Shown: positions 12,314 to 38,084 of the stretch, in pieces
How the letters are laid out: each line of letters opens with the position of its first letter
Position numbering within the stretch: position 1 is the first letter of the stretch
Virus record (IMG/VR): IMGVR_UViG_3300005918_000012
Direction: 5' to 3' (one strand)
Source: a virus
DNA: 64,000 nucleotides
The notes under the pieces: generated by a model
Database searches by the model: none
The model's input: only the letters and a program-made list of their open reading frames with translations
What the model was told of the DNA's origin: nothing
Program-made: the position numbers and the translations under genes

Positions 12314-12425
12314 CATCAATAAAAAGCCTGAGATTACGGTTAAAAGGATTCAAAGGTTCTTAGGTTTTCGGTAAAGTATGAATTATTACCTGTTAGTGTG
12401 TAGTTTTGGTCTGATAGGAGTTCTT

Positions 12426-13802
12426 ATGGATGCTTATAGAATAGTGAAATCTAAGGTAGATAGAAATCTAACTCAGAAGTTAAAAAAATTAAAGCCTAAA
12501 GCTCGTTCTATGGGTGACTTTACAGGCGGTGTTTTACAGGCAGCCTTTTATGCCCGTAAAACAGGTGAGACCTATTACCTTTACTCTGGTAATAATTGGG
12601 GTAATGAAGTTTGGCGGGTGTCCTATAGGAAATCCGATTATTTGAATGGTGTGAATAATCCATATGGTAAGTTACTATCCGTAACTCCCGATATGGTAGT
12701 TACGGAGCATACTTTGAAAAGAATTAAAAAAGAAGCAGCAGCTTGGAAATCACCTGCAATCAATAAATCATTAGCCCAAAAGGTTAATAAAGCAGTGAAA
12801 AAACATTTCGTGACGGATCTTTTGAATGATCTCATAACAAAGAAGAAAGATTGGCGTATAGGGCTGAGATCAGCTATTGGTAAAGCAGTTGCTCCTACTC
12901 AGATGCAGGATCGGATTGATGCTCAGGCTCCAATCAAAAAGTGGCTTAAATCTATCTCTGATAGAGATTTGGAGAAAGTTCGGGATTGGGTAGAAGAAAT
13001 CCAAAACAAAGGGAAAAGTGTTCAATACAAAACTAAACCGGAGGCTTGGAAAAGAGCAAGTACCAAAGAAGCTGGTGGTTTAAGCAGTGCTTTAGATTTA
13101 TTGTTTTCAATCATAGGCCAAGGATCATCTTCTAAAGGTGAGAAGATGTTTAAGGATACCAAGAAAGCACTGAAAACTGATGAGCAGTCCAAACAGATGA
13201 TGACAGGTGTTATCCGAAAGGTAGCAATGTCTTTAATACTTGACCAAAAGGAAAACACTGCTTTAAATTACATTATTATGGCAATGAGGAATGTTAAGGC
13301 TGACGGAGCTGCCAGGAACTCTATCTTCAAGGCTGCTAATATCTTAGGTATGAAACTTCCAAGTTCCATGTTTGCATCTGAGGACTCTGAGTTACGAGAA
13401 CAATTGGTTAAATTAGCTAATGACAACCCTGATATGAGAAAACACCTGATTCCCATTCTCAAAGAAACTAATACCAAAAAAGCTAGTGCTTATATCATTG
13501 ATGACCTCAAGAAGCTTTTTTCTGATGGTGTTAAGTCGGGTGTAAAAGAAGTGACTAAGTTTAGTGGCCCAACTCAACAGCACCATCAAGATCGGTTGGC
13601 AAAGGGGGCTGAACAAGGGTCTCTTGATTACATTTCAGGAATTCAACGTGATTTAAAAGTAATTGAGCGTGGTATTAAGTCTAATCATCAAATACCTAAG
13701 ATGGCTTCCATTTCTTTAACCTCTGGGTTACAAGGGTTATATTGGGTAGCCGGTGAATTGGTTGGTTATGAGTCTGTGGAGGCTTTTAAGAAAAAGGATT
13801 GA
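12426..13802 (+). CDS. Modular basic protein containing the KLAN module (putative internal head polyprotein)
   Basis: AGGAG SD before the ATG at 12426. Contains ELREQLVKLANDNPDMRKHLIPILKE and several K-x-A junctions. Confidence 0.7.
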   Translation: MDAYRIVKSKVDRNLTQKLKKLKPKARSMGDFTGGVLQAAFYARKTGETYYLYSGNNWGNEVWRVSYRKSDYLNGVNNPYGKLLSVTPDMVVTEHTLKRIKKEAAAWKSPAINKSLAQKVNKAVKKHFVTDLLNDLITKKKDWRIGLRSAIGKAVAPTQMQDRIDAQAPIKKWLKSISDRDLEKVRDWVEEIQNKGKSVQYKTKPEAWKRASTKEAGGLSSALDLLFSIIGQGSSSKGEKMFKDTKKALKTDEQSKQMMTGVIRKVAMSLILDQKENTALNYIIMAMRNVKADGAARNSIFKAANILGMKLPSSMFASEDSELREQLVKLANDNPDMRKHLIPILKETNTKKASAYIIDDLKKLFSDGVKSGVKEVTKFSGPTQQHHQDRLAKGAEQGSLDYISGIQRDLKVIERGIKSNHQIPKMASISLTSGLQGLYWVAGELVGYESVEAFKKKD

Positions 13803-13804
13803 TT

Positions 13805-13966
13805 ATGTGTTTTTGGAAAAAGAAAAAAGACCCTCCCCTTATATTCAAGGATTTTGGTGACGGCAATGGTGAGATAACCTGTGGTGGGAAAACCACAAAG
13901 GTTATTTATTTTTCAGAGGCTGCTGTAAAGCATATTGAAGCAGCAAAGAAAAGGATGTCTAAGTAA
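13805..13966 (+). CDS. Small hypothetical protein (53 aa, not in ORF track)
   Basis: MCFWKKKKDPPLIFKDFGDGNG...KRMSK. AAGGA SD and TAATG overlap with the next gene. Confidence 0.55.
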   Translation: MCFWKKKKDPPLIFKDFGDGNGEITCGGKTTKVIYFSEAAVKHIEAAKKRMSK

Positions 13967-14337
13967 TGTGGTGGGTTTACGTTTTACAATCTCAGCAACC
14001 TCGTGCAAATGGCCGGCCTGGGTTTCATTATGTGGGATGCACAACTGACCCTGCACGTCGTATAAGGCAGCACAACGGTGAAATCAAGGGAGGTGGACGT
14101 TACACCTCTAAACACCGCCCGTGGCTGCCTGTGGCCTTATACGGGACTTACAGTGGGCAATCTGAGGCTATGAAAGCTGAACGTGCCCTGAAACGTGGTA
14201 AGAGAAGTACTGGCCGGACTAAATGGTCAACTTCTGATTCTCCTTGGTGTCGAGGACTTGGTCCGAAAGACCCTTGGATCACTGATGGTATTTCCCCTAT
14301 AGAAGCCTATAAGAAGAAGGAGTCTTTTAATGGATGA
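13966..14337 (+). CDS. GIY-YIG nuclease, Slx1-like
   Basis: WVYVLQS...YVGCTTDPARRIRQHNGEIKGGGRYT...RPW...EAMKAERALK. Confidence 0.9.
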   Translation: MWWVYVLQSQQPRANGRPGFHYVGCTTDPARRIRQHNGEIKGGGRYTSKHRPWLPVALYGTYSGQSEAMKAERALKRGKRSTGRTKWSTSDSPWCRGLGPKDPWITDGISPIEAYKKKESFNG

Positions 14338-14885
14338 ACGATTGATAAAACTAACCAAAGATGAAAATAGGAGATAACAATGAGTAATCTACGAGATAAA
14401 ATAGCCAAACTGGCCAATGAAAAACCGGAGCTTCGGAAACATTTAATGCCGATCCTGAAACAGGCTGGTGATGATGATGAACTCTTAGTGTTCGATCTTT
14501 ATCGTGGGATTCCAAGTGTTGGTAAGGAGTTATGGAACCAGATGCGGGAAAATGACCTGGATGATAGATTAATTCAGTTTTCTCGAAAACCGGGTGACTG
14601 GGGAGAGGTGCGGAAGAAGGTTCGGGTGAATGCCCTGCCCCCAGAGTTCCAAAAAGCAATAAAAAACAAAAAAATCCCAACTGCCGTAATCCCGACGGCA
14701 GTTGAGTTGTGGGCTGTGGAGTTTTCAAACACCCTGAAAAATGCACTGTTGGTTTTGCTCGTCCATAACCGGAAATTATATCTGGTCAATACGGAGGGGT
14801 ATAATTATCCAAGATACATGGTGCAACTCACCTGACCCAGGAGAGATAAACAAAAGAAGAAGGAGTCCTTTAATGGATGAACGAT
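14311..14885 (+). repeat. 32-bp direct repeat (14311-14342 and 14854-14885) flanking ORF 14380
   Basis: aagaagaaggagtc(t/c)tttaatggatgaacgat, 31/32 identical. Confidence 0.9.
14380..14835 (+). CDS. KLAN-module protein (module at N-terminus)
   Basis: MSNLRDKIAKLANEKPELRKHLMPILKQAG. AGGAG SD. Confidence 0.8.
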   Translation: MSNLRDKIAKLANEKPELRKHLMPILKQAGDDDELLVFDLYRGIPSVGKELWNQMRENDLDDRLIQFSRKPGDWGEVRKKVRVNALPPEFQKAIKNKKIPTAVIPTAVELWAVEFSNTLKNALLVLLVHNRKLYLVNTEGYNYPRYMVQLT

Positions 14886-15991
14886 ATTTAGAGCTGTTCC
14901 CGATTATAAATGCAGCCGTTAAAAAATACCTGGTTCGGTCTAAATACATAAAACGAATCAGACTCAAAGGTAAAGACAAACACTCAATTCTATATAGTGT
15001 GGAATGGACATTTGAACCTAACAAAGCAGCTCCAATATCACATTATTTCTCAGTAAGTAGCACAGGGAGAACTCTTTATTTGGAGTTGGATGTTCCTGGA
15101 TTTCATAGTCATTCATCACCAACGGAAAAGAAAATGGATTTAGAGATTGCTCTTAACCGACCGGGTAAAGTTAAACAAGTAATAAAAGATATTGCTCAGA
15201 ACGCTGTGTCTGTAGCATCAAATGTAGTGTCTGATATGGAAAATAATATTCATCACTACTCCAACTTACAAGATAAAGTACAGAAGTTGGCCAATGACAA
15301 CCCTGAACTCAGATCTCATCTTGTTCCAATTCTCAAAAAGCAGGCTGGTGACAGTAAGAGACATATTCATAATGCCGAAGTCTATATGGGGAAAGGGGAT
15401 GAGTTTCATAAAAAACCCTTAAAAGAACAAAAAGCCATCATGATGAAAGCCATCACTAATGCTAAACAGAAATGGAAAAAGGTAGATGGTATCCTGACAG
15501 ACCTGAGCAAATCTTTTGATGGACACCCGAATCCGGGTCAGGCAATGGCACCTATTGAGCAACCTGTGGATTACGCCATTGATGCTATCATGATTGCAGT
15601 GATCATAGCCAACAAGTACAATGCTAACAAGAGAAGTATGAAAGCTGCTATTTTCAAATATGATTCCTCAACACCGATAGATAAAAGGGTTCTGATTAGA
15701 AACCTTAATAAAGTTCTTGGGGGTGTTTCCAGAGGGTTCTTCACCGATGAGCATTGGAGAGGCCCCAAGAGAGTTTGGGAAGCTTTAAATAAAATAGGTA
15801 TCACCTGGGATCAAACAAAGAACTTCTACGATAATAAAATGCCCAATGAATCTAAAACCTGGAAGTTTGAGCTTGAGTTTACCTCTAAAAAAGGCAGACC
15901 CGGTAAATTGTATGGCCACATGGTAGCCTCTGGTGCAGGGTCTGTAGCTGATCCTCTGAGTCGTTACGATGTTGTAGTTTATGTAGGTTAG
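14873..15991 (+). CDS. KLAN-module modular protein
   Basis: AAGGAG SD before the ATG at 14873. Internal NLQDKVQKLANDNPELRSHLVPILKKQAG. Confidence 0.8.
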   Translation: MDERYLELFPIINAAVKKYLVRSKYIKRIRLKGKDKHSILYSVEWTFEPNKAAPISHYFSVSSTGRTLYLELDVPGFHSHSSPTEKKMDLEIALNRPGKVKQVIKDIAQNAVSVASNVVSDMENNIHHYSNLQDKVQKLANDNPELRSHLVPILKKQAGDSKRHIHNAEVYMGKGDEFHKKPLKEQKAIMMKAITNAKQKWKKVDGILTDLSKSFDGHPNPGQAMAPIEQPVDYAIDAIMIAVIIANKYNANKRSMKAAIFKYDSSTPIDKRVLIRNLNKVLGGVSRGFFTDEHWRGPKRVWEALNKIGITWDQTKNFYDNKMPNESKTWKFELEFTSKKGRPGKLYGHMVASGAGSVADPLSRYDVVVYVG

Positions 15992-16003
15992 GGAGAAATT
16001 GAT

Positions 16004-16801
16004 ATGTCAATACCAAATTTGAAACAAGTAGCTGACAAGATTTATAAAGCCTTAAAATCCTTAGCAGAAGTGGCATCAGTTAAACCACCTAAGTTCTATG
16101 ATGCTATGAAGCCATCCATAAGTGGTAAATGGGTTATAAAGATGGAAGTCCCGGAAGTTCGGACAAGTTCTTTCTTCGTTCAGGTTAATATGGATGGAGT
16201 AGCTTGGTCAGGGGATCAGCCGTATCCTATTGAGGAAGCTATACTGAAAATTATTAAACCTCTTAAGATAAGTCGTCCTATGCGGTTCAAGCATATGTTA
16301 GGTCCTCAAGGATTACAGTTTCTGTGGGCTGGTAATTATGCCGTACATGCAAATTTACAGGAACAAGTACAGAAGTTGGCCAATGATAACCCTGAGATGA
16401 GAAAACACCTAGTCCCCATTCTGAAACAGGCTGGTGGGGGGATATATCAAATTTTCTTTGATATGTTTGGGAAAGCCTTTAAAAAATCTTGCACCGAGAT
16501 GTACGGCCAATTTTATCGTGATTACAGTTGGGATGACATTGAAGGAGTGTCTTCAAGTATCAAACCAGGGCTTTGGGAAGTAGTTTCCAAGTACGGTCCT
16601 ATGGTTGCAGTTTCTTATCATGCACAACCTACAAAACTGACTATTACTTGTAGTCTTCGAAATCTTCGACATAGGATGGAAGAAGAGAGACAGGTTGTTT
16701 TTTTAGAGAAGTTCTTAGCTAAAGATATGACTGAGAAAGATATGCAAGCCTTTATTATGAAATTCGTTATTAGCTGTGCTAAGAAGACTTGGAGAGGATA
16801 A
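16004..16801 (+). CDS. KLAN-module modular protein
   Basis: Internal NLQEQVQKLANDNPEMRKHLVPILKQAG. GGAG SD. Confidence 0.8.
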   Translation: MSIPNLKQVADKIYKALKSLAEVASVKPPKFYDAMKPSISGKWVIKMEVPEVRTSSFFVQVNMDGVAWSGDQPYPIEEAILKIIKPLKISRPMRFKHMLGPQGLQFLWAGNYAVHANLQEQVQKLANDNPEMRKHLVPILKQAGGGIYQIFFDMFGKAFKKSCTEMYGQFYRDYSWDDIEGVSSSIKPGLWEVVSKYGPMVAVSYHAQPTKLTITCSLRNLRHRMEEERQVVFLEKFLAKDMTEKDMQAFIMKFVISCAKKTWRG

Positions 16802-16802
16802 A

Positions 16803-17279
16803 ATGCCTAACTTACAAAATAAAATAGCCAAACTGGCCAACAAGAATCCGGGGTTAAGAAAACATCTGGTACCATTACTGAAAACAGCTAGGAAAGCCCC
16901 TGAAGCTTATATTACCATAGACAAGGATGCTATCTATTTCAGCTACAGCTATTTTTTACCTCCCATAGGTTGGGTTTCGGACATGGGTCAGCATCAACTG
17001 TTCTGTCAGAAATTATTGGAACGAACCATTGATGCCATCCAGAAAGAGTTTGGTGGTAAAACCAAGAAACGTCCGACCAAGATGCATTTTGCTTTGGATG
17101 ACAATAAACGTATGGTTCTGACAGGTCCAGCTCCGGCAGCTACGGGTGTGCTTGGTATAGATATTGAAAATCTGCTTGTTGAGGATGGGGGAGACAAACG
17201 ACCATTTATTAAAGCAGTCCAACAAGTATTCAAGAAATTAGGCTGGGATGTGAAAAGCTTAGATCATATGGCTATCTGA
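16803..17279 (+). CDS. KLAN-module protein (module at N-terminus)
   Basis: MPNLQNKIAKLANKNPGLRKHLVPLLKTA. GAGG SD before the ATG at 16803. Confidence 0.8.
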   Translation: MPNLQNKIAKLANKNPGLRKHLVPLLKTARKAPEAYITIDKDAIYFSYSYFLPPIGWVSDMGQHQLFCQKLLERTIDAIQKEFGGKTKKRPTKMHFALDDNKRMVLTGPAPAATGVLGIDIENLLVEDGGDKRPFIKAVQQVFKKLGWDVKSLDHMAI

Positions 17280-21500: not shown

Positions 21501-22544
21501 ATGACCGATGAAACGAAACCAGAAGAAGCAAAACCAGCAGTTAAACCCGTCCCAGTTCCTCTAGGCATCGGGCTCGATATCGGAACTATGAATATTGTTG
21601 CTGCCCGTCGTGGGGGGAATGGCATTCAATCCAAACGGATGCGGGATGTATTCATCAGTTTACCTCTGACAGCCAAGAAGATGTTGAAATTGTCTGATAC
21701 CAGCTTTGTTGAGCGGGAAGATGACGTTTTGATTCTAGGAGACGCAGCTCTGGAAATGGCTAATGTTTTTGGCTCTCAACCTCGACGACCACTTTCAGAA
21801 GGAATCATTTCAGCTAGTGAAGTGGATAGTCTGGAGATTCTCGGATTACTTATCAAGAATGTTCTGGGAGAACCCCGAACAGAAAAAGAGCATTGTTACT
21901 TTTCTGTTCCGGCAGTTCCAGTTGATTCTGATAGAGATGTTATCTATCACCGAGGAGTTTTTGAACGTATTGTTTCAGAGTGTGGTTATACCCCTCATGC
22001 AGCCAATGAGGCTATGGGGATCGTATACTCTGAGACAGCTAAAGAAGGATTCTCTGGGATCGGTATCTCCTTCGGCTCAGGGATGACCAACGTGGCCTTG
22101 TCCATCAATACTATTGAAGGTTTGACGTTCTCTGTGTCACGAGGCGGTGATTGGATTGATATCGGTGCAGCCGGCTCTGTAGGTCAAACACAAGCTCGGA
22201 TATGTGCCTTGAAAGAAAAGGGTTTTGATTTAACTAAACCTATGGGTCGGGAACAAGAAGCTTTGGCATTCTATTATAAATCGGCCATTGATTATGCTTT
22301 GGATAAGATTGAAGAACGGTTCAAGTCTATTCAGAATCAATTCTCTCTGTCTAAGCCTATTCCTATTGTGATTTCTGGTGGTACAAGTAAAGCTGGTGGC
22401 TTCATGGATTTCTTTACCGAAGTTTTTGAGAAACGTCGGAAGAAGTTCCCTATTGAAGTTTCTGAGTTACGACATGCCAAAGAACCCCTAAATGCTGTAG
22501 CTTACGGGCTGCTGATTCAAGCTATCCAAGAACACGAGGATTAA
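21501..22544 (+). CDS. Actin-like (MreB/MamK/ParM superfamily) ATPase
   Basis: Phosphate-1 'GIGLDIGTMN', connect-1 'NEAMGIV', phosphate-2 'GISFGSGMTN', 'GGDWID', adenosine 'VISGGTS', connect-2 'PLNAVAYG'. Confidence 0.9.
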   Translation: MTDETKPEEAKPAVKPVPVPLGIGLDIGTMNIVAARRGGNGIQSKRMRDVFISLPLTAKKMLKLSDTSFVEREDDVLILGDAALEMANVFGSQPRRPLSEGIISASEVDSLEILGLLIKNVLGEPRTEKEHCYFSVPAVPVDSDRDVIYHRGVFERIVSECGYTPHAANEAMGIVYSETAKEGFSGIGISFGSGMTNVALSINTIEGLTFSVSRGGDWIDIGAAGSVGQTQARICALKEKGFDLTKPMGREQEALAFYYKSAIDYALDKIEERFKSIQNQFSLSKPIPIVISGGTSKAGGFMDFFTEVFEKRRKKFPIEVSELRHAKEPLNAVAYGLLIQAIQEHED

Positions 22545-22545
22545 G

Positions 22546-22878
22546 ATGGAAGACTTAAAGTTGTGTGGTGCTCTACAAAAGATAGCAGACGAGAACCCTG
22601 AAACTAGGAAACATCTGATTCCTATTATCAAACAAGCTGCAAAGAAAACTATGAAGGTAACGGAACTCCCCCCGAAGGAACGAAAGATTGCCGAAAAGAA
22701 AATGGCCAAAGGTTATAAATACATATGTCAGTTTACTACGATTGACGGTGATTTAGATCCGATGTATTTCAAATCTCCAAATGAGATTGGACCTTTTAGG
22801 CGTCAGTATCAGAAGGACCACGGCACAACAAAAATAAAGTGGACTTTCAGATTAGAACCTGCAAAAGGTAAGAAATAA
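22546..22878 (+). CDS. KLAN-module protein (divergent module at N-terminus)
   Basis: LQKIADENPETRKHLIPIIKQAA. GAGG SD. Confidence 0.75.
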   Translation: MEDLKLCGALQKIADENPETRKHLIPIIKQAAKKTMKVTELPPKERKIAEKKMAKGYKYICQFTTIDGDLDPMYFKSPNEIGPFRRQYQKDHGTTKIKWTFRLEPAKGKK

Positions 22879-22879
22879 G

Positions 22880-23062
22880 ATGACTGATATGGATGCACAA
22901 GCAGCTTTAGAGTATTTATCTACACCTAAAGGGCAAGCTGAATTAAAAGCTGCTTTTGAACGAGGTCGGGAAGAAGCTGACCGTATCAAGGAAGCTGTAA
23001 AGATGGGTCTTGATAGTTTAAGAGTCCCTTTTGGACCCAAACATGGGTGGGGTTTACGATGA
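22880..23062 (+). CDS. Small hypothetical helical protein
   Basis: 60 aa, tightly packed, ATGA overlap with the next gene. Confidence 0.6.
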   Translation: MTDMDAQAALEYLSTPKGQAELKAAFERGREEADRIKEAVKMGLDSLRVPFGPKHGWGLR

Positions 23063-23424
23063 AGTCATCTAATGAAAACGGGTATCCTGTTATAACACCT
23101 GTACCCACAGTCAAGGATCATTTCGAACACCTAGCTAGTGTATTTACAGATATAGAAAAGACTGATGTTAAGGTAACGAATGTTGTGATGACACCAGGGT
23201 TCTGGGTAAGTCTGAAAAAAGCCAAACATTACAAGGACTCTTGTGATTTGGGTAGTAGTGGTGGAGGTCACATTGGATATGTCTGGGGTTCTAAGATATG
23301 GCTTTCTGAGGTGGTTGCTGGTGGTGAAGTTGTTGCTTATGGAGAAGATGATCCGAACTTCTTAAAAGATTGGCCTGCCTTTGCTAATTGGGGTTTTAAC
23401 TGGGGTTCTAATTTAAAGGATTAA
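23059..23424 (+). CDS. Stand-alone MCP A-domain-like protein 1
   Basis: LASVFTDIEKTDVKVTNVVMTP..W..LKK...GHIGYVWGSKIWLS aligns with MCP LADAFSLVERHDLRVARIYMNA..Y..LRK...GLMATLWGAQIVTS. Confidence 0.7.
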   Translation: MKSSNENGYPVITPVPTVKDHFEHLASVFTDIEKTDVKVTNVVMTPGFWVSLKKAKHYKDSCDLGSSGGGHIGYVWGSKIWLSEVVAGGEVVAYGEDDPNFLKDWPAFANWGFNWGSNLKD

Positions 23425-23427
23425 ATA

Positions 23428-23883
23428 ATGAGTGGAGCTCTCACAAATAGTCATCCTTTTGTAGAGGAAGAACAACGGATTGAGGATATCCCGTCTTTCG
23501 GGATACCTACACAAGAATCTTTTTATGAACTGCCCGAAGGTGTTGTAGCTACTTGTGTTTTATTGAGTTTTGAAGATCCTTTTGAGGTTTTAGCTAAGTT
23601 GTTTGATTTTATAGAGAAAACAGGCCAGTCAGTAAAGCATGTGGTAATAAATCATCAAACTTGGATAAGTATGTTGAAGGCTCAACAAAGTATACGAAAT
23701 ATAATGAGTTTAGTTAATATAGGACTTAGCGGTTATGTGGGGTGTTTGTGGAGTGTTCATGTCTGGGTTTCCCCAAGTGTCTCTAAAGATAAGTGTCACG
23801 GGTATAGTGAGTATGCTACTGAGGAATTTAAGGGTGCATACCCACAGTGTATTGAATACTTTAATAAAAACTTGAAAGATTAG
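23428..23883 (+). CDS. Stand-alone MCP A-domain-like protein 2
   Basis: LAKLFDFIEKTGQSVKHVVINHQTW..MLK...GYVGCLWSVHVWVS. Ends in NLKD like copy 1. Confidence 0.65.
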   Translation: MSGALTNSHPFVEEEQRIEDIPSFGIPTQESFYELPEGVVATCVLLSFEDPFEVLAKLFDFIEKTGQSVKHVVINHQTWISMLKAQQSIRNIMSLVNIGLSGYVGCLWSVHVWVSPSVSKDKCHGYSEYATEEFKGAYPQCIEYFNKNLKD

Positions 23884-23886
23884 ATT

Positions 23887-24156
23887 ATGTCACAAGATCA
23901 AAGAGAAGCTGCACGGATTAAGAAAGTTACAGTTACCATCCAGCAGGACTGGGAAGCTGTTGACCCGGACAATTCTGAAGATGTAGCTCTGGCTACCAAA
24001 CTCAGTGAAGATATTGTGTGGAACCTGAACCCGAAGCAAATGAACATCAGCCAGAAACGGGATGTGAATCCTGTCAGAGTTGCTGGGTCAGAAAAAATCG
24101 TGGAAATGGATGTTGGTCCCACTACTGCTACCATTTCAGGTGAACTGCTCGACTGA
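23887..24156 (+). CDS. Small protein resembling a fragment of the tail tube protein
   Basis: QMNISQKRDVNPVRVAG-SEKIVE vs tube QFNPSQSRTVEPVRGIGFGDKVSE. Confidence 0.65.
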   Translation: MSQDQREAARIKKVTVTIQQDWEAVDPDNSEDVALATKLSEDIVWNLNPKQMNISQKRDVNPVRVAGSEKIVEMDVGPTTATISGELLD

Positions 24157-24174
24157 AAATCAAAGGATTAGATT

Positions 24175-24582
24175 ATGGAATTTAAAAGTTTAGAAGAAAT
24201 CAAAAAAGTCATTCCTGTCCCCACAAAAGAAGATGTTATAAGTAAATTGGTCGAAACGGAACACGACCTGCTGGCAGGGAAGAAGTTTGCAAGTCAAGTA
24301 GCTGATCTTTTTTCTGAGGTGGAAAAAAAGAATGGTGATAGAGTTGCAAATGTGGTTTTTAATGCCCTTACTTTTCAGGATTTTCGTAAAGCTGATCCTT
24401 ACTTAATGGATATTGAATCTCAAGCAACGAGATTAAAAAATGGTTTGGTTGGGACATTGTGGGGAGCAAACGTCTGGGTTGCTGGAAAAGATAACCCTAA
24501 AGCATATGAAGAAAATGGTTCTGATTTTGCTAAGGATTATCCTGCCTTTAATCAGTTCCAGCAACAAATAGGTTTAAAATAA
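24175..24582 (+). CDS. Stand-alone MCP A-domain-like protein 3 (closest to MCP)
   Basis: ADLFSEVE...RVANVVFNA...DFRK...MDIESQATRLKNGLVGTLWGA vs MCP ADAFSLVE...RVARIYMNA...DLRK...LDIESQATLLKTGLMATLWGA. Confidence 0.9.
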   Translation: MEFKSLEEIKKVIPVPTKEDVISKLVETEHDLLAGKKFASQVADLFSEVEKKNGDRVANVVFNALTFQDFRKADPYLMDIESQATRLKNGLVGTLWGANVWVAGKDNPKAYEENGSDFAKDYPAFNQFQQQIGLK

Positions 24583-25858: not shown

Positions 25859-26308
25859 ATGCCCTTGTACCAATATCAATGTGGTTGCGGACTCAGATTT
25901 GAGAGTCAGGGAAGTATGGATAAACATGCAGACCCGAAAGAATGCCCGGACTGTGGAGAAATGGCTGAACGTCAGATGCCTGAAACGGTAGCTGGGGTTT
26001 TTAGTCAAGAAGTTTCTGGCCCTATTCCTCAGAACACAGGGATTTCAAGTATAGACACTCACATTGATCGAGTCATTGGACAGTCGGCTGAACAAGGCCG
26101 TAAAGCTCATGTGGTTCGTGTGGATACCAAGAAAGAGCTGCTTAGGAACAACCCGGATGCAACTGGATATGACATTACACAAACTCCTGATGGAGAATTC
26201 ACTTTGATGTCTAAAGACCAAAGGAAAGCTCGAGAAGCTGCTTTGGCTGTCAATAATAAGGCTATGAACGCCATAGAACAGGAGAGGGATAAAACCACTC
26301 CAAAATAA
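25859..26308 (+). CDS. FmdB-family zinc-ribbon protein (second copy)
   Basis: MPLYQYQCGCGLRFE...CPDCGEMAERQM. Confidence 0.85.
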   Translation: MPLYQYQCGCGLRFESQGSMDKHADPKECPDCGEMAERQMPETVAGVFSQEVSGPIPQNTGISSIDTHIDRVIGQSAEQGRKAHVVRVDTKKELLRNNPDATGYDITQTPDGEFTLMSKDQRKAREAALAVNNKAMNAIEQERDKTTPK

Positions 26309-26316
26309 TTACTAGG

Positions 26317-26460
26317 CCACAAAGGCCGTGGAAAATACATACCGACCGAAACACCGACCTATCTTTTGAGCTTTAAAACCGCCGTTGGCTGGAGAGACAG
26401 ACGAATGAACCGATAAACGAACGATTCAATTTGAGCTGAAACTCCGCAACGACTTTGTGG
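26317..26460 (+). ncRNA. Candidate structured RNA/cis-element, copy A (leader of the sheath gene)
   Basis: Outer stem ccacaaag..gtgga / tccgc..ctttgtgg, two (NNAY)7 tracts each followed by TTTGAGC, and an inner hairpin with a bulged U. Confidence 0.6.
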
Positions 26461-26486
26461 AAGAAACTAAAACAAGAGGTGTTCAA

Positions 26487-29400
26487 ATGGCATTTCCAGG
26501 TAAATCTTATGCTCCTCCGGGAGTTTACACTCAAACATTCTTCGAGAACCCTGTTTCTGGTGCTATCGACAGTTTCAAGATTCCAATTTTTATTGGTGAA
26601 GGAAACGAATTTCTGACACAGCAGAACTTGGAACTTGTCCGAGGTTCGTCCCAAAACGTCGATCAGAAAATCGTCGGTGAAGACGAAGCTGGACGAGCTG
26701 TAGTTGCTATTACCGCAGCTGGTGTTGTAGCCTTGGGTGACTTTGATGGGACTTTGGATAAAATCCAAGTTCGTAAATACCCCATCGTTGATGGTGAAGG
26801 TGTTGGAGCTGCTTCAAACAGCCGTTCGGATGTGATTGTTACCATTAACAACCAGATTACGGTTGTACGGCAGGTAACGGGAGCCACTGGTATTATTCAG
26901 TTAGCTCAAGCACCCTCAGCAACGGATGAAGTTCGAGTAACATACTTCTTCAAACGAACAGATACTCTGGTAACAGATGATGTTAGTGACCAGGTTAATC
27001 CTGATCCTGCAATCGTTCGTAGTGTAATAGGTCTTGCCGATGCAGATTCTCCTGTAGGCCAAGAAGGTTCTGTTGGAGCCTATGCTGTTATAGATTTACA
27101 CGGTGATATTACCAATGCTTCTGGTCAAGTTATCGTTCCGGCCAACAACATTCTGAACTTGACCATTGATGGTGTGAAATATACTATCACCTTGGCTCCA
27201 AGAACAGATTATACGATGGAGCAGATTGCTGCTGCCATCACAGCAGCCGGTAAAGGAACTCTGACAGCCAGTGCTTTCATTAATAATTTCGGTCTTTCTG
27301 CTTTATTGTTGAATGCCGATGGAAGCATCGTAGTGAATGCCGGGGCAGCAAATGCACCATTAGGACTCATAACAGGTTCTGCCGATACCCGAACAATAAC
27401 CTTCTATACCTTCCAAGGTCCCATCGTTGATGGTTCCAATGGTGGTGTGACGACAACCGACTCTGCTAAAGTGGTGGTCAAAGTTAATAACATTCAGGTT
27501 ATCCCGACAGCAGTGAACGGTTCTACTCGGGCAGTTACTTTAGCCTCAGCTCCAAAAGCTGGTGCAACCGTAACCATCCAATACTGGTTCAACGCCTGGC
27601 AGGATACATTTGATTACCTGCAACATAACAGTGTAACTGAGATTACCAGTTGTGGTGTAGCTCCTAATTCCCAGTCTTACATCCAAGATGCTGACTTCGT
27701 GCTTAAAGATGACAAGATCGTCTGGGGTACAGCAGCTCTGATTTCCAGTGGTGTTCATACTACTGGGGCTACGTTATTTGGGGACACTCAGATTACGGCA
27801 ACCTTGATTGACAACAAAACCTTCCTTTCGGCTTGTACCCCAGTTGTACAAAGTAGTGGTGGAATCTCTACTGATAACCGAATGGAGTTTTCCTTGGCTT
27901 TCCAGCCGACTCTTGGTAATGGACGTAACACCCCCTTGGGTCAGAGTCTATTCCAAACAGTTTCCAACGGACGAATTGATATCCCAACCAACCGCCCTGA
28001 CGTGGTGGATGTGTATTGGGGTTATGATATCCAAGATGCTCTCGACAGAGGCAAAGTTGATGTTGACAAAGTGGACGGAATTGTCGTCACTTTGGCTGAG
28101 GCCGTTCCTGCTGGAGCTTCTGTATTTGCTTCGTTCTGGTATAACCTTCTGACAGACAATGAATTCACCGCTGAGTGTGTAAACCCCGGAGCTTCCGGTG
28201 TTGGTACTTACACCATCATTGACAACGGTGACAACGATGTCTACGGAGCTACTTTCAATACCGGTTCAAAGGGAACTTCCTTGAACGGTGTGACTCTTGA
28301 ATTCCCATCAGGCTCAGAACTGACTCCTGATCTTCGTTTTGAAGGCTTGTCAGGTGATGATTTTGTAGGTCCAATCGAAGAAATCGTTACAGTACAGTTT
28401 GCATCTCGTGTGGCTACTCCTGCTAAATGGACGATGCCTGGTTCTGGTCCTTATGAGTTCATCAATGGATACTCGGATCATCTCCGAATCAAACTACATG
28501 CTGCCGATGCTACACCCGCAACAGGTCTGGATTTGGATAATCCTTCCGGACATGATGGTGGGTTCTTTGCTACCTTGATCGGTAGTGAGGTAGATTACAC
28601 TGGCGGATCTGGTGCAACCATTGGTCAAAGTTATTCTTTGGCAGCTGCCGAGGACTTCTACTTGCAGGTTGATGATGCTAACATCTTGGTTAAAACCTCT
28701 GCTACAGTATCTAATGTTGATGTCAGTTATTTTGCTGACGTTATCAATGAAGCTGCTAGTGGGCAACAAGGTCTGGCCGTAGTCGGTGGTGGTTTAAGTA
28801 ACATCATATTGCCTTCTACCGTTTCTGATATTACCTCCGACGTGAACAACTACTATGTTGGTTGGAGAGTGGTTATCGGTACTCACGCTCTCGGTGGTGC
28901 AAGTTCTGGTCAGTTCCGAACTATCACAGCTTATAATGGAGCAACTTCCACAGCTACAGTAGATGCAGCATGGACTGGTGGTGCTACTGTAGTAAATACT
29001 CCTTATTACCTTTACAACCCAGATGCACGATCTACAATGGTTGGTGCAACTGAGTTTAATGGTCCTGTAACAATCACATTAGGCGGTCATGACAAACTGA
29101 ACTTTGCCTTTAGAGGTGATGTAGAATCAATAGCCTTTGAAATTACCTTAGACCCAGGCACTTATGCTACTCCAGTTCTTTTGGCTGCCGAAGTCCAAAC
29201 TCAGATTGATGCTGCACTTACACCCGGAGCAACTGGTGCAAGTGTCGAGTGTACAGCTAATGCTGCTGCCAAGTTGCAGTTTAAACTACAACTTCCAGGT
29301 TTGAATAGTGTTAGTTACTTGCAATTCTTGAACTCCTCTGGCTCCCCAGACGATGATTTTGCAATCCTAGCAGGTTTGGACACAGCCGCATCTTTTGGTG

Positions 29401-31802
29401 GTGGTCAAGCAGCTTTGATTCAAGGTCCTATTGCTCGGTCTTATGTCTGCCCATCTGGTACAGGAGATCGTAAACTCTATGACCGCCTTGTCCTTCGTAA
29501 CAGATTGTTACCTGGTGGCGGACCAAGCAGCAGCATGGATGCTCATGATATTGAAGCTCAAACTGCTCTCCAAGTTCTTACTGGTAATACAAAAGCTGGT
29601 TTAGTATCAGGTGTGTACGGAGAAGCTGCTCGATCAGCAACCGTTCGTCCTGCTACAGTATTTGGTGATGTCGGCCTCACAGGTGATATGGATACCGATG
29701 GTGAACCTCTGGTCACGTTCTACGATGGCACAGGAACACAAGCTGCAAATGACACCTTTAAGTTCGATGTAGATGGAACTCCTGTTGAAGTAGCCTTTGA
29801 TTCTTCAGCTACTGGAGTAACGACAATTACTCCTTTAGGACCAATCTCGGATGACACTTCAATCTTGGGTCAGATCAAAGTGGCTATGGCTGCTGTCCCC
29901 GGAACTCCTTTCGGAACTGCTGCTAACATTGTTAGCACCCTAATCCTTCGTCAAGAAGGTGCTGGTATCCGTCTGACAGGTCTTGAATCCAGCAGCACTG
30001 CCAAGTTGTCTATTGGTAGCAGTAGTGCTAATGGTGTCTTAGGGTTCTCGTCCGGTGCAACTTCTCTCCGTGAGACTGTTTCCGTGAGAACCTTGGCTTC
30101 AGCTTTGATGGCTAACCGAAACAGTAACTTTACAAACTGGCTGATAGATATTGATGCTACTACAGCTTTAACCTTTTCCCTTTATGGTTTGGCTGGTGTT
30201 GAAGAAGATAGTGTTGGTGCAGAATTCTTGTACTTGCAAGATGCTCCTTCACTCATAGCTGAGTTAGGAACTCAATCCTCGATTGAGATCAAGAATACAA
30301 CCGGCCTGATTGATGATGCTTTGGCTTATCATACTGGTCTAAGTGCTAAAGATGGTGACGGAGCTTCGGGTGAACCTGCTCTTGATGGTTTCTTCGTGAA
30401 ATCAAGTGTGAGTGGTGGATCTGGTTCCGTTGATGAATCTCTCCTGAACCCCGCTGCTGATGGAACAGGTCAAGATGGTATCGTTGGTCAAACTTACCGA
30501 GATGAAGTAAGTGGCTTAACTTTCACTCTCCTGCCTCGTGGTTGGAGTACTGATCCAAACGGTCCTTGGCTCCAATACCCAACGGGTGTAAATGCTACTT
30601 TCCGTATCCAATGTGGTAAATCCTTCACAACGGATGCTAACATACCTCATAACTCTGTCAATGGTGTCGAGCTGATTGTAGCTAATACCGTCGGAGTAAC
30701 AACTGAGGATACAGCTCTGGTAGAAACCTTCGAGCGTGGTGGTGAAGAACCTTCAATAGGTGACTTGTACTACACCTCTTATGTGTACCAGAAACAAGAC
30801 TTCAATACGGGATTCTTTAGCAAGATGTCCTCCATTGAAGAAGCCTACGGTACAATCTCGACCGACAATCCTTTGTCTATGGCTTCTGATCTGGCTATCA
30901 TGAATGGTGCTGTCCTCTTAGGGCTGAAACAAGTCCCAAGAGAAACTGGTGAGTCATATGCCAGCTTGACGACCTACAGAGATGCCATCAAAGATTTGGA
31001 AGGCACATTGCCAGGTTACATTAATCCTGACATTATCTGCCCGCTTCGTGGAGACTCAACGGACCTGTATCAATACTTGAAACAGTCCAACGAACTGATG
31101 TCCTCTATCCGATACAAGTCCGAACGGACTTCCATTGTCGGTATGTCGGCAGGAAGCTTACCAGAAGATGCTGGTGATTTGGCTCAGACCTTGGGCAACA
31201 CCCGTATGCGTTTGGTTTATCCTGACATGGCTATCGTTTCAATCACGGATGCTTTGGGTACCAGTCGAGATGAGCTGATGGATGGTCCGATGTTGGCAGC
31301 AATGCTTATTGGTTCTGTCATTAGCCCGAACCTTGATGTGGCAACTCCTTGGACTGGCCGACGTTTGGTTGGTGTCCGACAACTGGGACGTATCTTAGAT
31401 GCCCCTCAACAGAACTTGTTGGCTACTAAAGGTGTCACGATTCTGGAAGATAAACCTCCGTTCATCAGAGTACGTCACGGTTTGACTACTGACATGACGA
31501 ACGTGTTGACCAAGTTGCCGACCATCATCATGATTGCAGATGAAGTCCAACGTCAGTCAAGACAACTTCTGGAGAACTTCGTAGGTATCAAGTTCTTGCC
31601 CGGCGTCCTCTCACAAGTTGAAGGCCGTATGGCAATGCTCTTGAAACAGATGGTGAATGCCAAGATCATAACAGCCTACACAGGTGTTAAGGCAACAACG
31701 GCAGCTGACGACCCTACCGTAGGTGAAGTGTCTGCTTACTACAGCCCAGTATTCCCACTGTTATACTTGGTCTTAACCTTCCACCTCCGTTCCAGCTTGT
31801 AA
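26487..31802 (+). CDS. Tail sheath protein, very large (~1770 aa) with many inserted domains
   Basis: N-terminal 'YAPPGVYTQT'. C-terminal sheath core 'ERTSIVG...RMRLVYPD...DVATPWT...KGVTILE...VRHGLTT...VSAYYSPVFPLLYL'. GAGGT SD before the ATG at 26487. Confidence 0.92.
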   Translation: MAFPGKSYAPPGVYTQTFFENPVSGAIDSFKIPIFIGEGNEFLTQQNLELVRGSSQNVDQKIVGEDEAGRAVVAITAAGVVALGDFDGTLDKIQVRKYPIVDGEGVGAASNSRSDVIVTINNQITVVRQVTGATGIIQLAQAPSATDEVRVTYFFKRTDTLVTDDVSDQVNPDPAIVRSVIGLADADSPVGQEGSVGAYAVIDLHGDITNASGQVIVPANNILNLTIDGVKYTITLAPRTDYTMEQIAAAITAAGKGTLTASAFINNFGLSALLLNADGSIVVNAGAANAPLGLITGSADTRTITFYTFQGPIVDGSNGGVTTTDSAKVVVKVNNIQVIPTAVNGSTRAVTLASAPKAGATVTIQYWFNAWQDTFDYLQHNSVTEITSCGVAPNSQSYIQDADFVLKDDKIVWGTAALISSGVHTTGATLFGDTQITATLIDNKTFLSACTPVVQSSGGISTDNRMEFSLAFQPTLGNGRNTPLGQSLFQTVSNGRIDIPTNRPDVVDVYWGYDIQDALDRGKVDVDKVDGIVVTLAEAVPAGASVFASFWYNLLTDNEFTAECVNPGASGVGTYTIIDNGDNDVYGATFNTGSKGTSLNGVTLEFPSGSELTPDLRFEGLSGDDFVGPIEEIVTVQFASRVATPAKWTMPGSGPYEFINGYSDHLRIKLHAADATPATGLDLDNPSGHDGGFFATLIGSEVDYTGGSGATIGQSYSLAAAEDFYLQVDDANILVKTSATVSNVDVSYFADVINEAASGQQGLAVVGGGLSNIILPSTVSDITSDVNNYYVGWRVVIGTHALGGASSGQFRTITAYNGATSTATVDAAWTGGATVVNTPYYLYNPDARSTMVGATEFNGPVTITLGGHDKLNFAFRGDVESIAFEITLDPGTYATPVLLAAEVQTQIDAALTPGATGASVECTANAAAKLQFKLQLPGLNSVSYLQFLNSSGSPDDDFAILAGLDTAASFGGGQAALIQGPIARSYVCPSGTGDRKLYDRLVLRNRLLPGGGPSSSMDAHDIEAQTALQVLTGNTKAGLVSGVYGEAARSATVRPATVFGDVGLTGDMDTDGEPLVTFYDGTGTQAANDTFKFDVDGTPVEVAFDSSATGVTTITPLGPISDDTSILGQIKVAMAAVPGTPFGTAANIVSTLILRQEGAGIRLTGLESSSTAKLSIGSSSANGVLGFSSGATSLRETVSVRTLASALMANRNSNFTNWLIDIDATTALTFSLYGLAGVEEDSVGAEFLYLQDAPSLIAELGTQSSIEIKNTTGLIDDALAYHTGLSAKDGDGASGEPALDGFFVKSSVSGGSGSVDESLLNPAADGTGQDGIVGQTYRDEVSGLTFTLLPRGWSTDPNGPWLQYPTGVNATFRIQCGKSFTTDANIPHNSVNGVELIVANTVGVTTEDTALVETFERGGEEPSIGDLYYTSYVYQKQDFNTGFFSKMSSIEEAYGTISTDNPLSMASDLAIMNGAVLLGLKQVPRETGESYASLTTYRDAIKDLEGTLPGYINPDIICPLRGDSTDLYQYLKQSNELMSSIRYKSERTSIVGMSAGSLPEDAGDLAQTLGNTRMRLVYPDMAIVSITDALGTSRDELMDGPMLAAMLIGSVISPNLDVATPWTGRRLVGVRQLGRILDAPQQNLLATKGVTILEDKPPFIRVRHGLTTDMTNVLTKLPTIIMIADEVQRQSRQLLENFVGIKFLPGVLSQVEGRMAMLLKQMVNAKIITAYTGVKATTAADDPTVGEVSAYYSPVFPLLYLVLTFHLRSSL

Positions 31803-32520: not shown

Positions 32521-34044
32521 TTAACGTCTAATACTACGGAAACCACCAGCTCGTTCGGCATCAGCAATGACTTCTTGTACCAGTTTCAGATGTTCTTTGA
32601 GTCGGTATTCGAGATCTCTGAGGGCTATCTCCTCGTAGGAGTCTGAGCTTCCTTGGCCTAAATACCATAGTGTTTTTTGCGTTTTCAAACTCAAGGGTAA
32701 GATGAGTTGTGTAGGCATGTCTTCAAACTGTTTAGATTTCTTACCAGGGGTAACAACTTTAACAGCAGGGGCAAAGGTTATCGGGGCTTTGACATCCGGG
32801 GCTGAGGTAAAGGTTATTGGAAAAGAAGTTAGTGGCATAACAACTGGTTTGGGTTTCATTTTCTTCGGAGCAACATCAAGGGCTTCCAAATCTTTCAGAA
32901 TGGCATCAACATCAATACTTTCGGTAACAGATGCAACTTCTTGGTCAGAAATAGGTTCTTGATACGGGACAGCTACCCCGTTTGGTTCGTCAAGTTTTAT
33001 AGGGTCAGGTTGTGTTATTTTTTTATAACACAACCCTATTTCTTCTTTAGAAGGCATTAGTAAATCAGACAATTCTTCTTTTCTAAGCCATACTAAGAAT
33101 CGTTTTACTGATGTATAGATAGAATGCATTGTTGATTCGGCATAATCCGGGGAGATGTGTGTAAAAAAGTTCTGGACTGATTCTTTAGTAATATCTTCGG
33201 GTTTCGTTTTCTTACCGACAACGTCTGCAAAATCCTGAATGTGGTTCCCGTGGCTTTTTTGGTGAGTTTTACTTGCACGTTTGATTTTGGGGGGGAGATC
33301 TTTCAGATGTTGTTTTACCGCTGTTTTTAAAGTTTTGGTCAAATTGTCCTCCTTCACCCCATTATCTGTAGGGGTTGCTAGTATTTCTGGGAATTCTAAT
33401 GGGTTAAGGTCACTTGTTTTCGGGATGAGGTTTGAAACATATTCGTATTTTTTAGCACCTTCCATACCTGTATCTTTTATTTTGAGAGAACCTTCAGCCA
33501 AAAGTTGGTCAATCCCTTTTTTGGCATCGGTTTTTGAAACTTGGAAAAAATCCATAACATCCTTTAATGTTGGATATTGAGGATATTTATTGCCAGAGTG
33601 AGCCTGTTGATAACAGTACCGCATGTAATTCCGAACGATACTTTTTTGCCAGTCGTTTTTAAAGTTGGGAGTAAAGGGATCAATACTAGCATACCCACCA
33701 AAACATACTTTTTCAATATGCTCTCTTAATAGGAAACTTGGTTGATATCTAATGACACCAACACCATGTGTTATGTCAAGAAAACCTTTTTGAGTTAAAG
33801 ACTCCAGATATTCTTCTACAGACCCTGTTCTTAATTCTTTAATACGAATAGGGCGGTTCCAATTTTTATTTGCATACTTGGGATCTCTTAAAAACCCTTT
33901 CTGAAAAGCCTCGTTTTTCTTTTCTTTTTCTTTTTTCAAAAAAGAACAGATTTCTACATCTGTCCAGTGGCCGTGAAAGCCATCACCAGCTTGAAGCATA
34001 ACTTTGAAAAGTTCAAATCCGTGTCTGTTTATAACTTTTAACAT
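32521..34044 (-). CDS. Putative DNA-binding protein: winged-HTH-like segments plus an integrase SAM-like (core-binding) domain, with no catalytic domain
   Basis: 'PTLKDVMDFFQVSKTDAKKGIDQLLAEGSL' (wHTH-like) and 'EDITKESVQNFFTHI...AESTMHSIYTSVKRFLVWL' (int SAM-like). Only long minus-strand gene, with AAGGA SD. Confidence 0.6.
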   Translation of the reverse strand: MLKVINRHGFELFKVMLQAGDGFHGHWTDVEICSFLKKEKEKKNEAFQKGFLRDPKYANKNWNRPIRIKELRTGSVEEYLESLTQKGFLDITHGVGVIRYQPSFLLREHIEKVCFGGYASIDPFTPNFKNDWQKSIVRNYMRYCYQQAHSGNKYPQYPTLKDVMDFFQVSKTDAKKGIDQLLAEGSLKIKDTGMEGAKKYEYVSNLIPKTSDLNPLEFPEILATPTDNGVKEDNLTKTLKTAVKQHLKDLPPKIKRASKTHQKSHGNHIQDFADVVGKKTKPEDITKESVQNFFTHISPDYAESTMHSIYTSVKRFLVWLRKEELSDLLMPSKEEIGLCYKKITQPDPIKLDEPNGVAVPYQEPISDQEVASVTESIDVDAILKDLEALDVAPKKMKPKPVVMPLTSFPITFTSAPDVKAPITFAPAVKVVTPGKKSKQFEDMPTQLILPLSLKTQKTLWYLGQGSSDSYEEIALRDLEYRLKEHLKLVQEVIADAERAGGFRSIRR

Positions 34045-34114
34045 CTCTATCCTTTCGAGTTCCTGTTTCTTATTTTCTTATACCCTCTTTTTTCATTTTT
34101 ATTTAAAACAGCAC

Positions 34115-34142
34115 TTGACAGTGGCATTTTGATGGGTATAAT
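34115..34142 (+). promoter_or_regulatory. Sigma70 promoter of the MerR-VIT operon
   Basis: TTGACA-16 nt-TATAAT. Confidence 0.75.
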
Positions 34143-34160
34143 AAGAAGCATGAAAGGAGT

Positions 34161-34556
34161 ATGCCGATGAAATATACTATGAGTGAGTTAGCGGAAAGAT
34201 CCGGGGTGACAGCCAGAACGATCCGCTACTGGATTGGAGAGGGTCTCCTGAAAGGTCCTTTGGGTGGTAAAGGGCATGGAGCCTATTACACTGACGACCA
34301 TTTGAAGCGTCTCCAAACTATTCAAGAAATGAAAAATGGCCAAGGAGATCAGGAAGGGATGACTTTGAGGGATATCAAGTCTACTCAAGATGGTTGCAGT
34401 AATCTTGAGTTCAAAGTTACTCGTCCGACACACATTTGCCCTATGGATGGGGTAGACCTAATAATTGCTGAGAATATTCCGTTACATTACCGACGTGCTT
34501 TTATCCAAGCTATAGTTAATGTAGCCAATTCTATTACAAACAGACGAAGGAGTTAA
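34161..34556 (+). CDS. MerR-family HTH protein
   Basis: YTMSELAERSGVTARTIRYWIGEGLL...YYTDDHLKRLQTIQEMK...GMTLRDIK. Confidence 0.9.
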   Translation: MPMKYTMSELAERSGVTARTIRYWIGEGLLKGPLGGKGHGAYYTDDHLKRLQTIQEMKNGQGDQEGMTLRDIKSTQDGCSNLEFKVTRPTHICPMDGVDLIIAENIPLHYRRAFIQAIVNVANSITNRRRS

Positions 34557-37127: not shown

Positions 37128-37247
37128 CCATTTTTGGGTTTCGTTATATTGCTTATATTGCCCGTAAGAGTGAGGGTTAGAAATTTATGACTCTCCCTTC
37201 ACCTGTTAAATAGGTGTGGATCGAAACCGTAGATGGAGGTCTTTATA

Positions 37248-38084
37248 ATGCCGAATCTTGATAACAACACAGCAAACACCGGAGTAGGTGGAACATCGTA
37301 TATGTACGATTACGGGACAAGCCCGAACACCAGAACTGCGGTTAGCCAGAAAGTTCGTATTCTGACACCTCATGTTGGAAATACAACTACGATGGCTCAG
37401 ATGGGTGTGCTGTCTCAATTTAACCCCTCACAAAGCAGAACTGTTGAGCCTGTACGTGGTATAGGTTTCGGGGACAAGGTTTCCGAGCTGGTACCTTCCG
37501 TAACAGAACCGACAACTGGTAACTTTGAACGAGCACTCTTATACCTGTGTAACTTGTGGCAAGCCACTGGTTATGCTTCTGGTGTAGATGGCCCTGTTCG
37601 TTCCTTAGCTCATCACAAATGGCCTTTCGATGTTGAACAGCAAGTCGTGTTCAGTTCATTGGCTGATGAGGATCTAGGCGTTGCAAACATAGGTACTGGA
37701 AATGATGCCGGTACTTTCGATGGTGGTGTTAGCCAAGTCAATTACGGCAAGGTTACTCCAAATGAGAGCGTTACTGTTCCTGGTAATGGCGATCAAGGAC
37801 ATTCAGCCATCATTACAGTATACGAAGCCTGCTGGTTCAATAGCTGGTCAACCACTTTTGCCAAAGACTCTGGCCTTATTATGGAATCTGGTGATGTGAC
37901 CGTTACTGACGTACATGACTTTGCTTCTATCTATGGTGAGTTCATGGCTACTGGTAATGACCCAACGGTCGGACAACTTGGTTCCATTCGATATGCCGAA
38001 TCAGGCTTCGATGTAGCCGGTGTTGGAGGCCGAGTAAACGTAGGTGGTGAAGGCCAAGGACTCGTAGCTTTACAACAACCATAA
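37248..38084 (+). CDS. Tail tube protein
   Basis: 'GVLSQFNPSQSRTVEPVRGIG...ELVP' and 'TVYEACWFNSWSTTF...IMESGDVTVTDV' tube pattern. GGAGG SD before the ATG at 37248. Lies between sheath and chaperone/TMP genes. Confidence 0.85.
   Translation: MPNLDNNTANTGVGGTSYMYDYGTSPNTRTAVSQKVRILTPHVGNTTTMAQMGVLSQFNPSQSRTVEPVRGIGFGDKVSELVPSVTEPTTGNFERALLYLCNLWQATGYASGVDGPVRSLAHHKWPFDVEQQVVFSSLADEDLGVANIGTGNDAGTFDGGVSQVNYGKVTPNESVTVPGNGDQGHSAIITVYEACWFNSWSTTFAKDSGLIMESGDVTVTDVHDFASIYGEFMATGNDPTVGQLGSIRYAESGFDVAGVGGRVNVGGEGQGLVALQQP

Follow-up and report, generated by a model that had tools for sequence, protein, structure and literature searches.

Bacterial receptors that read conserved virion proteins, i.e. 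the capsid A-domain and the tail tube, are now known in numbers. A short piece of the major capsid protein (MCP) is sufficient to engage a host defence protein, as in the case of the Gol region of T4 gp23 and the Lit protease. The target of Avs7, Avs8, and Avs10 is the capsomer-forming face of the MCP A-domain, and that of Avs16 is a beta-hairpin of the tube (10.64898/2026.01.04.697583). The tail tube protein is also sensed by DSR2, which is countered by a phage protein (PMC11087589). How a phage could answer virion sensors without altering proteins that it cannot change is an open question, and an obvious candidate answer is the array of four small genes, named A, B, C, and D, present in a 64,000-nucleotide (nt) stretch of DNA of an uncultured huge phage (IMG/VR record IMGVR_UViG_3300005918_000012), referred to below, at its full length, as the window. 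Genes A, B, and D code for single A-domains derived from the phage's own MCP, and gene C for a derivative of the N-terminal third of a virion-module protein, which is probably the tail tube. Identical genes are found on contigs of up to 402 kb from saline-lake metagenomes, in which the phage population is clonal (ten contigs 99.98-100% identical). The array and the two parental genes comprise (sizes in amino acids, aa):

1-573, plus strand: MCP, C-terminal 190 aa (the window opens inside the gene), parent of A, B, and D; match to phrog_2522 'major head protein' with E 3e-30
23059-23424, plus strand: gene A, 121 aa, derivative of the MCP A-domain standing on its own (A-type) and paralogous to B and D
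23428-23883, plus strand: gene B, 151 aa, the most diverged A-domain derivative, with a 45-aa N-terminal extension
23887-24156, plus strand: gene C, 89 aa, derivative of the N-terminal third of the 283-aa protein
24175-24582, plus strand: gene D, 135 aa, the most MCP-like A-domain derivative
37233-38084, plus strand: conserved 283-aa virion-module protein, parent of C, probable tail tube to judge from its language-model neighbours and position

The homology of A, B, and D to the MCP A-domain is confirmed. The same four gene models were obtained with public gene callers on 18 contigs, and in a database of 109 open reading frames A, B, and D are mutual paralogues (E 9e-10 to 6e-8, the former value being that of B with A and the latter that of B with D). 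D shows 51% identity over 59 aa to the C-terminal half of the MCP (E 7e-16), and a profile of ten members of the family formed by these A-domain genes (the mini family) matches the MCP of five relatives with E values of 1e-15 to 1e-17. The identity of A and B to the MCP is only about 25%. The orthologue of gene A in the relative L101 matches the MCP with E 3e-9, and the orthologue of gene B in L001 is 45-49% identical to B. The complete MCP is 307 aa long, as read in a 98% identical relative (L020:2650-3570), and in a joint alignment the minis span its residues ~150/180-270, with nothing upstream. Being 121-151 aa long and devoid of the N-arm, E-loop, spine helix, and P-domain, they are not complete HK97-type subunits, and thus are not MCPs and cannot build a shell. 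Searches of Pfam (E up to 0.1) and PHROGs with A-D gave no family, no MCP match, and no decoration-protein family, while a tblastn search of 50,697 phage records with D had as its sole match the MCP of one uncultured 485-kb phage.

The fold was predicted for D with AlphaFold2 (AF2) from mini-family sequences only (predicted local distance difference test score, pLDDT, of 79.7), so that MCP sequences could not bias the model. Residues 27-120 of the model superpose on residues 250-335 of HK97 gp5, i.e. on the A-domain. In a comparison with all 48,161 PDB representatives PF0899/DUF1884 ranked first, the rest of the top list being, with few exceptions, HK97-fold capsid and encapsulin chains (Z 5-6); a search of the ESM atlas with the same model gave capsid clusters as well, and one of BFVD gave small PaBG and Y3 proteins of similar fold. 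The Z values alone are middling, but together with the sequence statistics they make the A-domain assignment of A, B, and D safe. D carries an insertion of ~17 aa in the first helix and a new helical tail. Across the whole mini family only core positions are conserved, the surface loops varying among the A, B, and D types, with D keeping an MCP-like loop and hairpin. The C-terminal flank, F-x-K/E-D-x-P-x-F ... LK, is family-specific and is modelled as two helices where the MCP runs into strands. As for the N-terminal 'PVPT' motif, its origin may lie in the 'IPVIAPIT' segment of the MCP itself.

An earlier, sequence-only reading of the window had taken the genes starting at 23059, 23428, and 24175 for isolated MCP A-domains lacking the P-domain and the E-loop, and on both counts it proved right, the superposition on the A-domain being available for D. 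It had also described flanks shared by the three genes and absent from the MCP, which holds for the C-terminal flank and is doubtful for the N-terminal one. Its further proposal that the domain was excised and then duplicated and diversified agrees with the paralogy of the genes, their new C-terminal tail, and the junction repeats described below; a second virion-protein fragment lies in the same array. The evidence thus supports the origin of A, B, and D from a single A-domain that was cut from the MCP, gained a new C-terminal tail, and was subsequently duplicated and diversified.

In the case of gene C the direct similarity to the 283-aa protein is weak (pairwise E 0.05; E 0.13 in hhalign with a six-row profile), and its relatives amount to 7 matches among 1.8 billion representatives. 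P0013, a TPR protein among the matches of the C profile, was discarded as a repeat artefact. Three members of the C family (L100, P0015, and P0016) carry an N-terminal block of the 'YDYGTxPNT' type, which is also present at the start of the 283-aa family. A profile-profile hhalign comparison including these members gave a probability of 92%, E 6e-7, and a score of 47.4, the best score in a column-shuffle control (n=60) being 15.2. The similarity falls into two colinear blocks, at tube residues 20-43 (E 4e-6 alone) and 63-103 (E 1.3e-3 alone). The window's own C is without the YDYGTxPNT block and has a different middle segment, its aligned part being tube residues 63-103. With 89 aa, and covering only residues 63-103 (20-103 in its longer relatives), C is not a complete tube fold. 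On the strength of these profile comparisons, C descends from a copy of the 283-aa protein's N-terminal third.

The 283-aa protein itself is probably the tail tube, as indicated by its language-model neighbours, a weak PHROG match, and its position after a sheath-like gene. The nearest named clusters in language-model space are Phi812_tail_tube and DUF2001, with 19 of 30 matches in the Phi812_tail_tube set (score 0.95); the match to phrog_4542 is weak (E 0.23) and concerns 2 of the 26 family members; the gene is located 3' of the sheath-like gene. A Pfam search with all 26 members gave no match, and the best hit of the family profile in a PDB sequence search, the Pam3 'cement' chain (E 0.74), is not significant. 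The tube families PF06841 and PF09393 were not found in the records of three relatives, in which phrog_4542 gave one weak match (E 0.007; G003:374509-374697), located away from the 283-aa homologue. The names of the 1,459 homologues of the protein are all 'hypothetical' or blank, and its AF2 model, built with 26 homologues, is unusable (pLDDT 36). A complex prediction for D and C gave a score of 0.00, which carries no weight either way. The statement of the sequence-only reading that the gene at 23887 matches the tail tube therefore stands as regards copying of the N-terminal third of the 283-aa protein, while the identity of the parent is only probable.

The selection acting on the array was estimated as omega, the ratio of nonsynonymous to synonymous substitution rates (dN/dS), of the least diverged pairs, with bootstrap 95% confidence intervals (CI). 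Omega equals 0.60 for D, 0.46 for B, and 0.45 for A (against L101), with a pooled value for A, B, and D of 0.51 (CI 0.36-0.73); for C it is 0.19 (CI 0.08-0.38), and for the neighbouring 385-aa gene 0.08 (CI 0.05-0.13). At the protein level the array genes change at about five times their neighbours' rate, the purifying selection on them being some six-fold weaker. Reading frames, starts, and coupled junctions are retained across dS values of up to 1-2. The pooled omega and that of C, both below 1, together with the intact frames indicate that the genes are constrained and not decaying; neutral decay, named by the sequence-only reading as an outcome that would refute its proposal, is thereby rejected. 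Between D and the MCP core dS is 1.4, i.e. saturated, so their likeness is old and maintained. Recent gene conversion between the two is ruled out by this value and by their nucleotide identity of 58%. Compared with L101, dS of gene A (23059-23424 vs L101:2886-3245) is 0.48 and that of the flanking 385-aa gene 1.25; the lower dS of gene A hints at a transfer of the cassette between lineages by recombination.

The genes A, B, C, and D are arranged head to tail on the same strand and tightly packed, and are predicted to form one tightly coupled, co-translated operon. No promoter or terminator signals above background were found at the array. A repeat search revealed three copies of a 21-nt junction sequence:

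23410-23430, plus strand: copy 1, at the A/B boundary
23869-23889, plus strand: copy 2, at the B/C boundary
24157-24177, plus strand: copy 3, after the stop of C and just before D, a relic of the end of a mini-A gene

The junction comprises the final codons 'LKD', the stop, and the next start, the coding AAGGA being at the same time the ribosome-binding site. The positions of the copies show that what was duplicated was a junction together with a gene, and the relic after C shows that this gene now lies within what was once a tandem of A-domain genes.

A survey of related genomes, also envisaged in the sequence-only reading, located the array in about five close relatives, with varying gene content. 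C is found in all five (L001, L101, L098, L100, and L099). L001 carries B', C, an extra 124-aa paralogue, and D; L101 carries A, C, and D; in L098 a C-like module is fused in frame to A and followed by C and a copy of D shortened by TGA; L100 has C only, and L099 a TnpB fragment, a membrane protein, and a 57-aa remnant of C. P0009 is a second, independent C-A fusion of 180 aa, and since it has no internal start, the fusion is genuine. Outside the five close relatives the mini family was not detected: a search of 5.8 billion clusters brought up only 8 of its proteins, and a 436-kb relative, complete and with terminal repeats, carries its MCP but no mini genes. Moreover, the A-domain genes are missing from relatives whose MCP is 98% identical. 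The array is thus optional and lineage-specific, and it evolves by birth and death. Two further phages of the clade (618 kb and 536 kb) have A-domain-only genes of their own at other locations: a 146-aa one ending in a CxxC...CxxC zinc ribbon (L216:1203-1643, minus strand) and a 214-aa one with an unknown C-terminal domain (L215:1488-2132, minus strand). Both are nearer to the MCP (E ~5e-12 to 5e-13) than to the window's mini family, and they are independent births within the clade.

The array occupies a variable slot in the structural region, with head genes on one side and sheath and tube genes on the other. The slot is delimited in the window by two conserved genes and contains two further small genes besides the array:

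21501-22544, plus strand: Volactin-family actin, left anchor of the slot; full-length match to PF25216 with E 8e-76
22546-23062, plus strand: two small slot genes, of 110 aa (22546-22878) and 60 aa, the latter 88% identical in L101
24661-25818, plus strand: conserved 385-aa gene, right anchor of the slot, with 80 homologous loci

In 40 relatives the actin and 385-aa genes lie 42 to 2,275 bp apart, and the contents of this interval are unrelated. They include TnsA-like, GIY-YIG/NUMOD3 homing, and DUF4379/DUF559 nucleases and a TnpB (IS605 OrfB) fragment, the nuclease-type genes being L118:3093-3968, L121:3165-3938, L139:3084-3968, L172:3276-3968, L124:2429-3952, and L099:2797-3222. Their presence in other relatives indicates that the slot is a landing site for mobile nucleases.

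Dispensability, narrow distribution, location in a hotspot, fast change, and birth and death of the genes point to an optional accessory function of A-D in some conflict rather than to a core role in assembly. Both parents of the array, the MCP and the probable tube, are abundant polymerising late proteins, and the precedents of the Avs proteins and DSR2 make a non-polymerising A-domain and a tube N-terminus plausible sensor blockers. The explanation tentatively put forward here is that A-D are accessory conflict proteins, candidate decoys for sensors of free capsid and tube subunits. They would be non-polymerising stand-ins for unassembled capsid and tube subunits, occupying a factor by which free subunits are recognised. 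The likeliest such factor would be a host pattern-recognition sensor for late virion proteins, kept blocked but not set off. If A-D were made alongside or before the bulk of the MCP, few copies could saturate a sensor of low abundance. Having both an MCP-like D type and diverged A and B types would allow the paralogues to deal with several partners or with partners that change, and the C-A fusions would place both epitopes on one chain; such a chain fits a sensor-blocking role better than it fits either lattice.

Several observations weigh against decoys. The MCP is nearly invariant (87-99% identity in the best 80 of 518 confirmed viral-contig loci), and a mimic of a fixed target would be expected to stay MCP-like, yet only the D type does so, A and B having drifted to the low identity given above. 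A free capsid fragment can activate a defence instead of blocking it, as does the T4 Gol peptide with Lit. Furthermore, the MCP is in vast excess late in infection, and titration would require a scarce sensor and prior binding of the mimic. Finally, the array lies among virion genes, 3' of the actin-like gene, with no promoter or terminator signal standing out from the background. The divergence of A and B from the MCP and the possibility that fragments trigger defence are the reasons why the decoy proposal is kept tentative, with the balance somewhat against it. A more general form of it is doubtful: that huge phages carry 'trigger mimics', arrays of non-polymerising A-domain and tube surfaces read by receptors, which would blind these receptors and be renewed by nuclease-driven duplication.

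The same facts may be read in other ways. The position of the genes in the structural region, between head and sheath/tube genes, and the MCP-like loop and hairpin of D, conserved under long-term purifying selection, would suit minis that bind the phage's own MCP or tube as decoration or cement proteins, caps, chaperones, or modulators of the size or assembly of the very large capsid, and decoration proteins are typically optional and fast-evolving. Nevertheless, such a role in the virion or its assembly is on the unlikely side, because relatives with a 98% identical MCP do without the A-domain genes, so that nothing essential depends on them. An invariant MCP partner should, moreover, hold its binder constant, whereas omega is about 0.5 and the sequences of A and B have moved a long way from that of the MCP, and tube-like and capsid-like modules on one chain fit neither lattice. 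Unlikely, too, is exaptation of the A-domain fold as a stable scaffold binding host factors unrelated to capsid recognition, in the service of takeover or anti-defence, in which case MCP ancestry would have no bearing on the mechanism. It would leave unexplained both the presence, including in fusions, of a fragment of a second polymerising virion protein in the array and the fact that D has stayed MCP-like at saturated dS. What it does account for is the conservation of core positions only, with surface loops differing by type, the fast evolution of the genes, and the fusion of the A-domain to unrelated parts in other lineages (the zinc ribbon in L216 and the unknown domain in L215). Small unnamed phage proteins of similar fold are common, and the fold is also free-standing in cells as DUF1884.

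Two further explanations have still less in their favour. The array may consist of by-products of break repair, i.e. pieces of highly expressed genes captured and tandemly amplified in the nuclease slot and surviving as weakly constrained reading frames that do little or nothing. Segmental amplification can be driven by homing endonucleases (PMC13096335), the slot harbours nucleases in many relatives, the junction repeats show that duplication proceeded in tandem unit by unit, and the truncated D copy of L098 and the 57-aa remnant of C in L099 look like debris. However, C and the pooled A-domain genes have omega values significantly below 1, their frames, starts, and coupled junctions have been kept over long synonymous divergence, a new shared C-terminal tail has evolved, and births were recurrent and independent, all of which renders functionless by-products improbable. 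Interference with competitors is very improbable. Fragments of polymerising proteins are classic dominant negatives and could poison capsid or tail assembly in co-infecting related phages or in satellites that exploit this phage's virion proteins; many closely related huge phages share the same samples, and satellites are described to remodel helper capsids (PMC10002752). The producer's own MCP, however, is the same as that of its competitors (87-99% identical within the best 80 of 518 loci), so the poison would hit the producer equally, which disfavours this explanation, and no satellite is known for the clade.

Trigger mimics, if true, would be a new class of anti-defence. Whatever the function of A-D, the array shows that domains of core virion proteins can be cut out singly, acquire stability through a new tail, become joined to other fragments, and undergo rapid turnover at a hotspot for nucleases. 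Such excision has happened repeatedly within one clade of huge phages.

The remaining genes of the region show several features of their own. The 110-aa slot gene (22546-22878) contains a module of ~23 residues common to five genes at 12378-17279 (50-65% identity, E 2e-7 to 2e-4), with the consensus L-x-K-[IL]-A-[DN]-x-N-P-x-x-R-K-H-L-[IV]-P-[IL]-[IL]-K, which is also present in a slot gene of L134. The actin at 21501-22544 belongs to an archaeal-type family, here inside a phage virion-gene region, and adjoins the slot in at least 40 related huge phages. On the other side of the slot, a PDB sequence search with the 385-aa protein as the query gave no match. The MCP gene is followed on its 3' side by many unnamed genes, including one for a homing endonuclease. 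Proteins of the Zn_ribbon_8 type are encoded at 25859-26308 and 4065-4448, their first 39 residues being 41% identical (E 2e-7); the former gene has the 385-aa gene and the sheath-like gene as its immediate neighbours, a position kept in relatives. The sheath-like gene (26457-31802) codes for a protein of 1,781 aa; in language-model space, tail sheaths are among the neighbours of its last 450 residues. Searches of the protein gave no Pfam or PHROG sheath match, and its sheath-like C-terminus had no PDB sequence match; if it is a sheath, additional N-terminal and central domains account for more than 1,300 of its residues. At 32521-34556, after the sheath-like and before the tube-like gene, there is a 507-aa gene on the minus strand whose product has an integrase SAM-like domain, and next to it a gene for a MerR-family regulator; the 507-aa gene, which may be an inserted element, is the window's sole long gene on the minus strand. 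The gene just 5' of the probable tube gene (34560-37070) codes for an 836-aa protein containing VIT and von Willebrand A domains.

In the literature no description was found of free-standing genes for an A-domain or a tube fragment, and several known systems share one aspect or another with the array. The T4 vertex protein gp24 and other full-length MCP paralogues arose, like the minis, by duplication of the major capsid gene within a phage, and the model of D superposes on the A-domain of gp24 and gp23 (Z 5.2-6.1). However, gp24 is a complete HK97-fold subunit placed in the shell, whereas a mini is one domain of ~90 residues with a new tail, dispensable in relatives. A stand-alone A-domain-like fold is also represented by PF0899/DUF1884 (PDB 2pk8), a cellular protein of ~94 aa, which aligns with the D model over 75 residues at Z 5.9, a root-mean-square deviation of 3.0 A, and 3% identity, the Z value being middling and tied with those of capsid A-domains. 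In contrast to it, the minis have no Pfam membership and are demonstrably recent derivatives of the phage's own MCP. The Gol region is a part of an MCP and activates a defence, while the minis are separate genes maintained by selection. DSAD1, a phage inhibitor of the tube sensor DSR2, has the role proposed for gene C (PMC11087589). Unlike C, it is not known to be derived from the tube protein. In comparison with these systems the minis are single-domain offshoots of known virion families, MCP paralogy being a kind of relationship already known.

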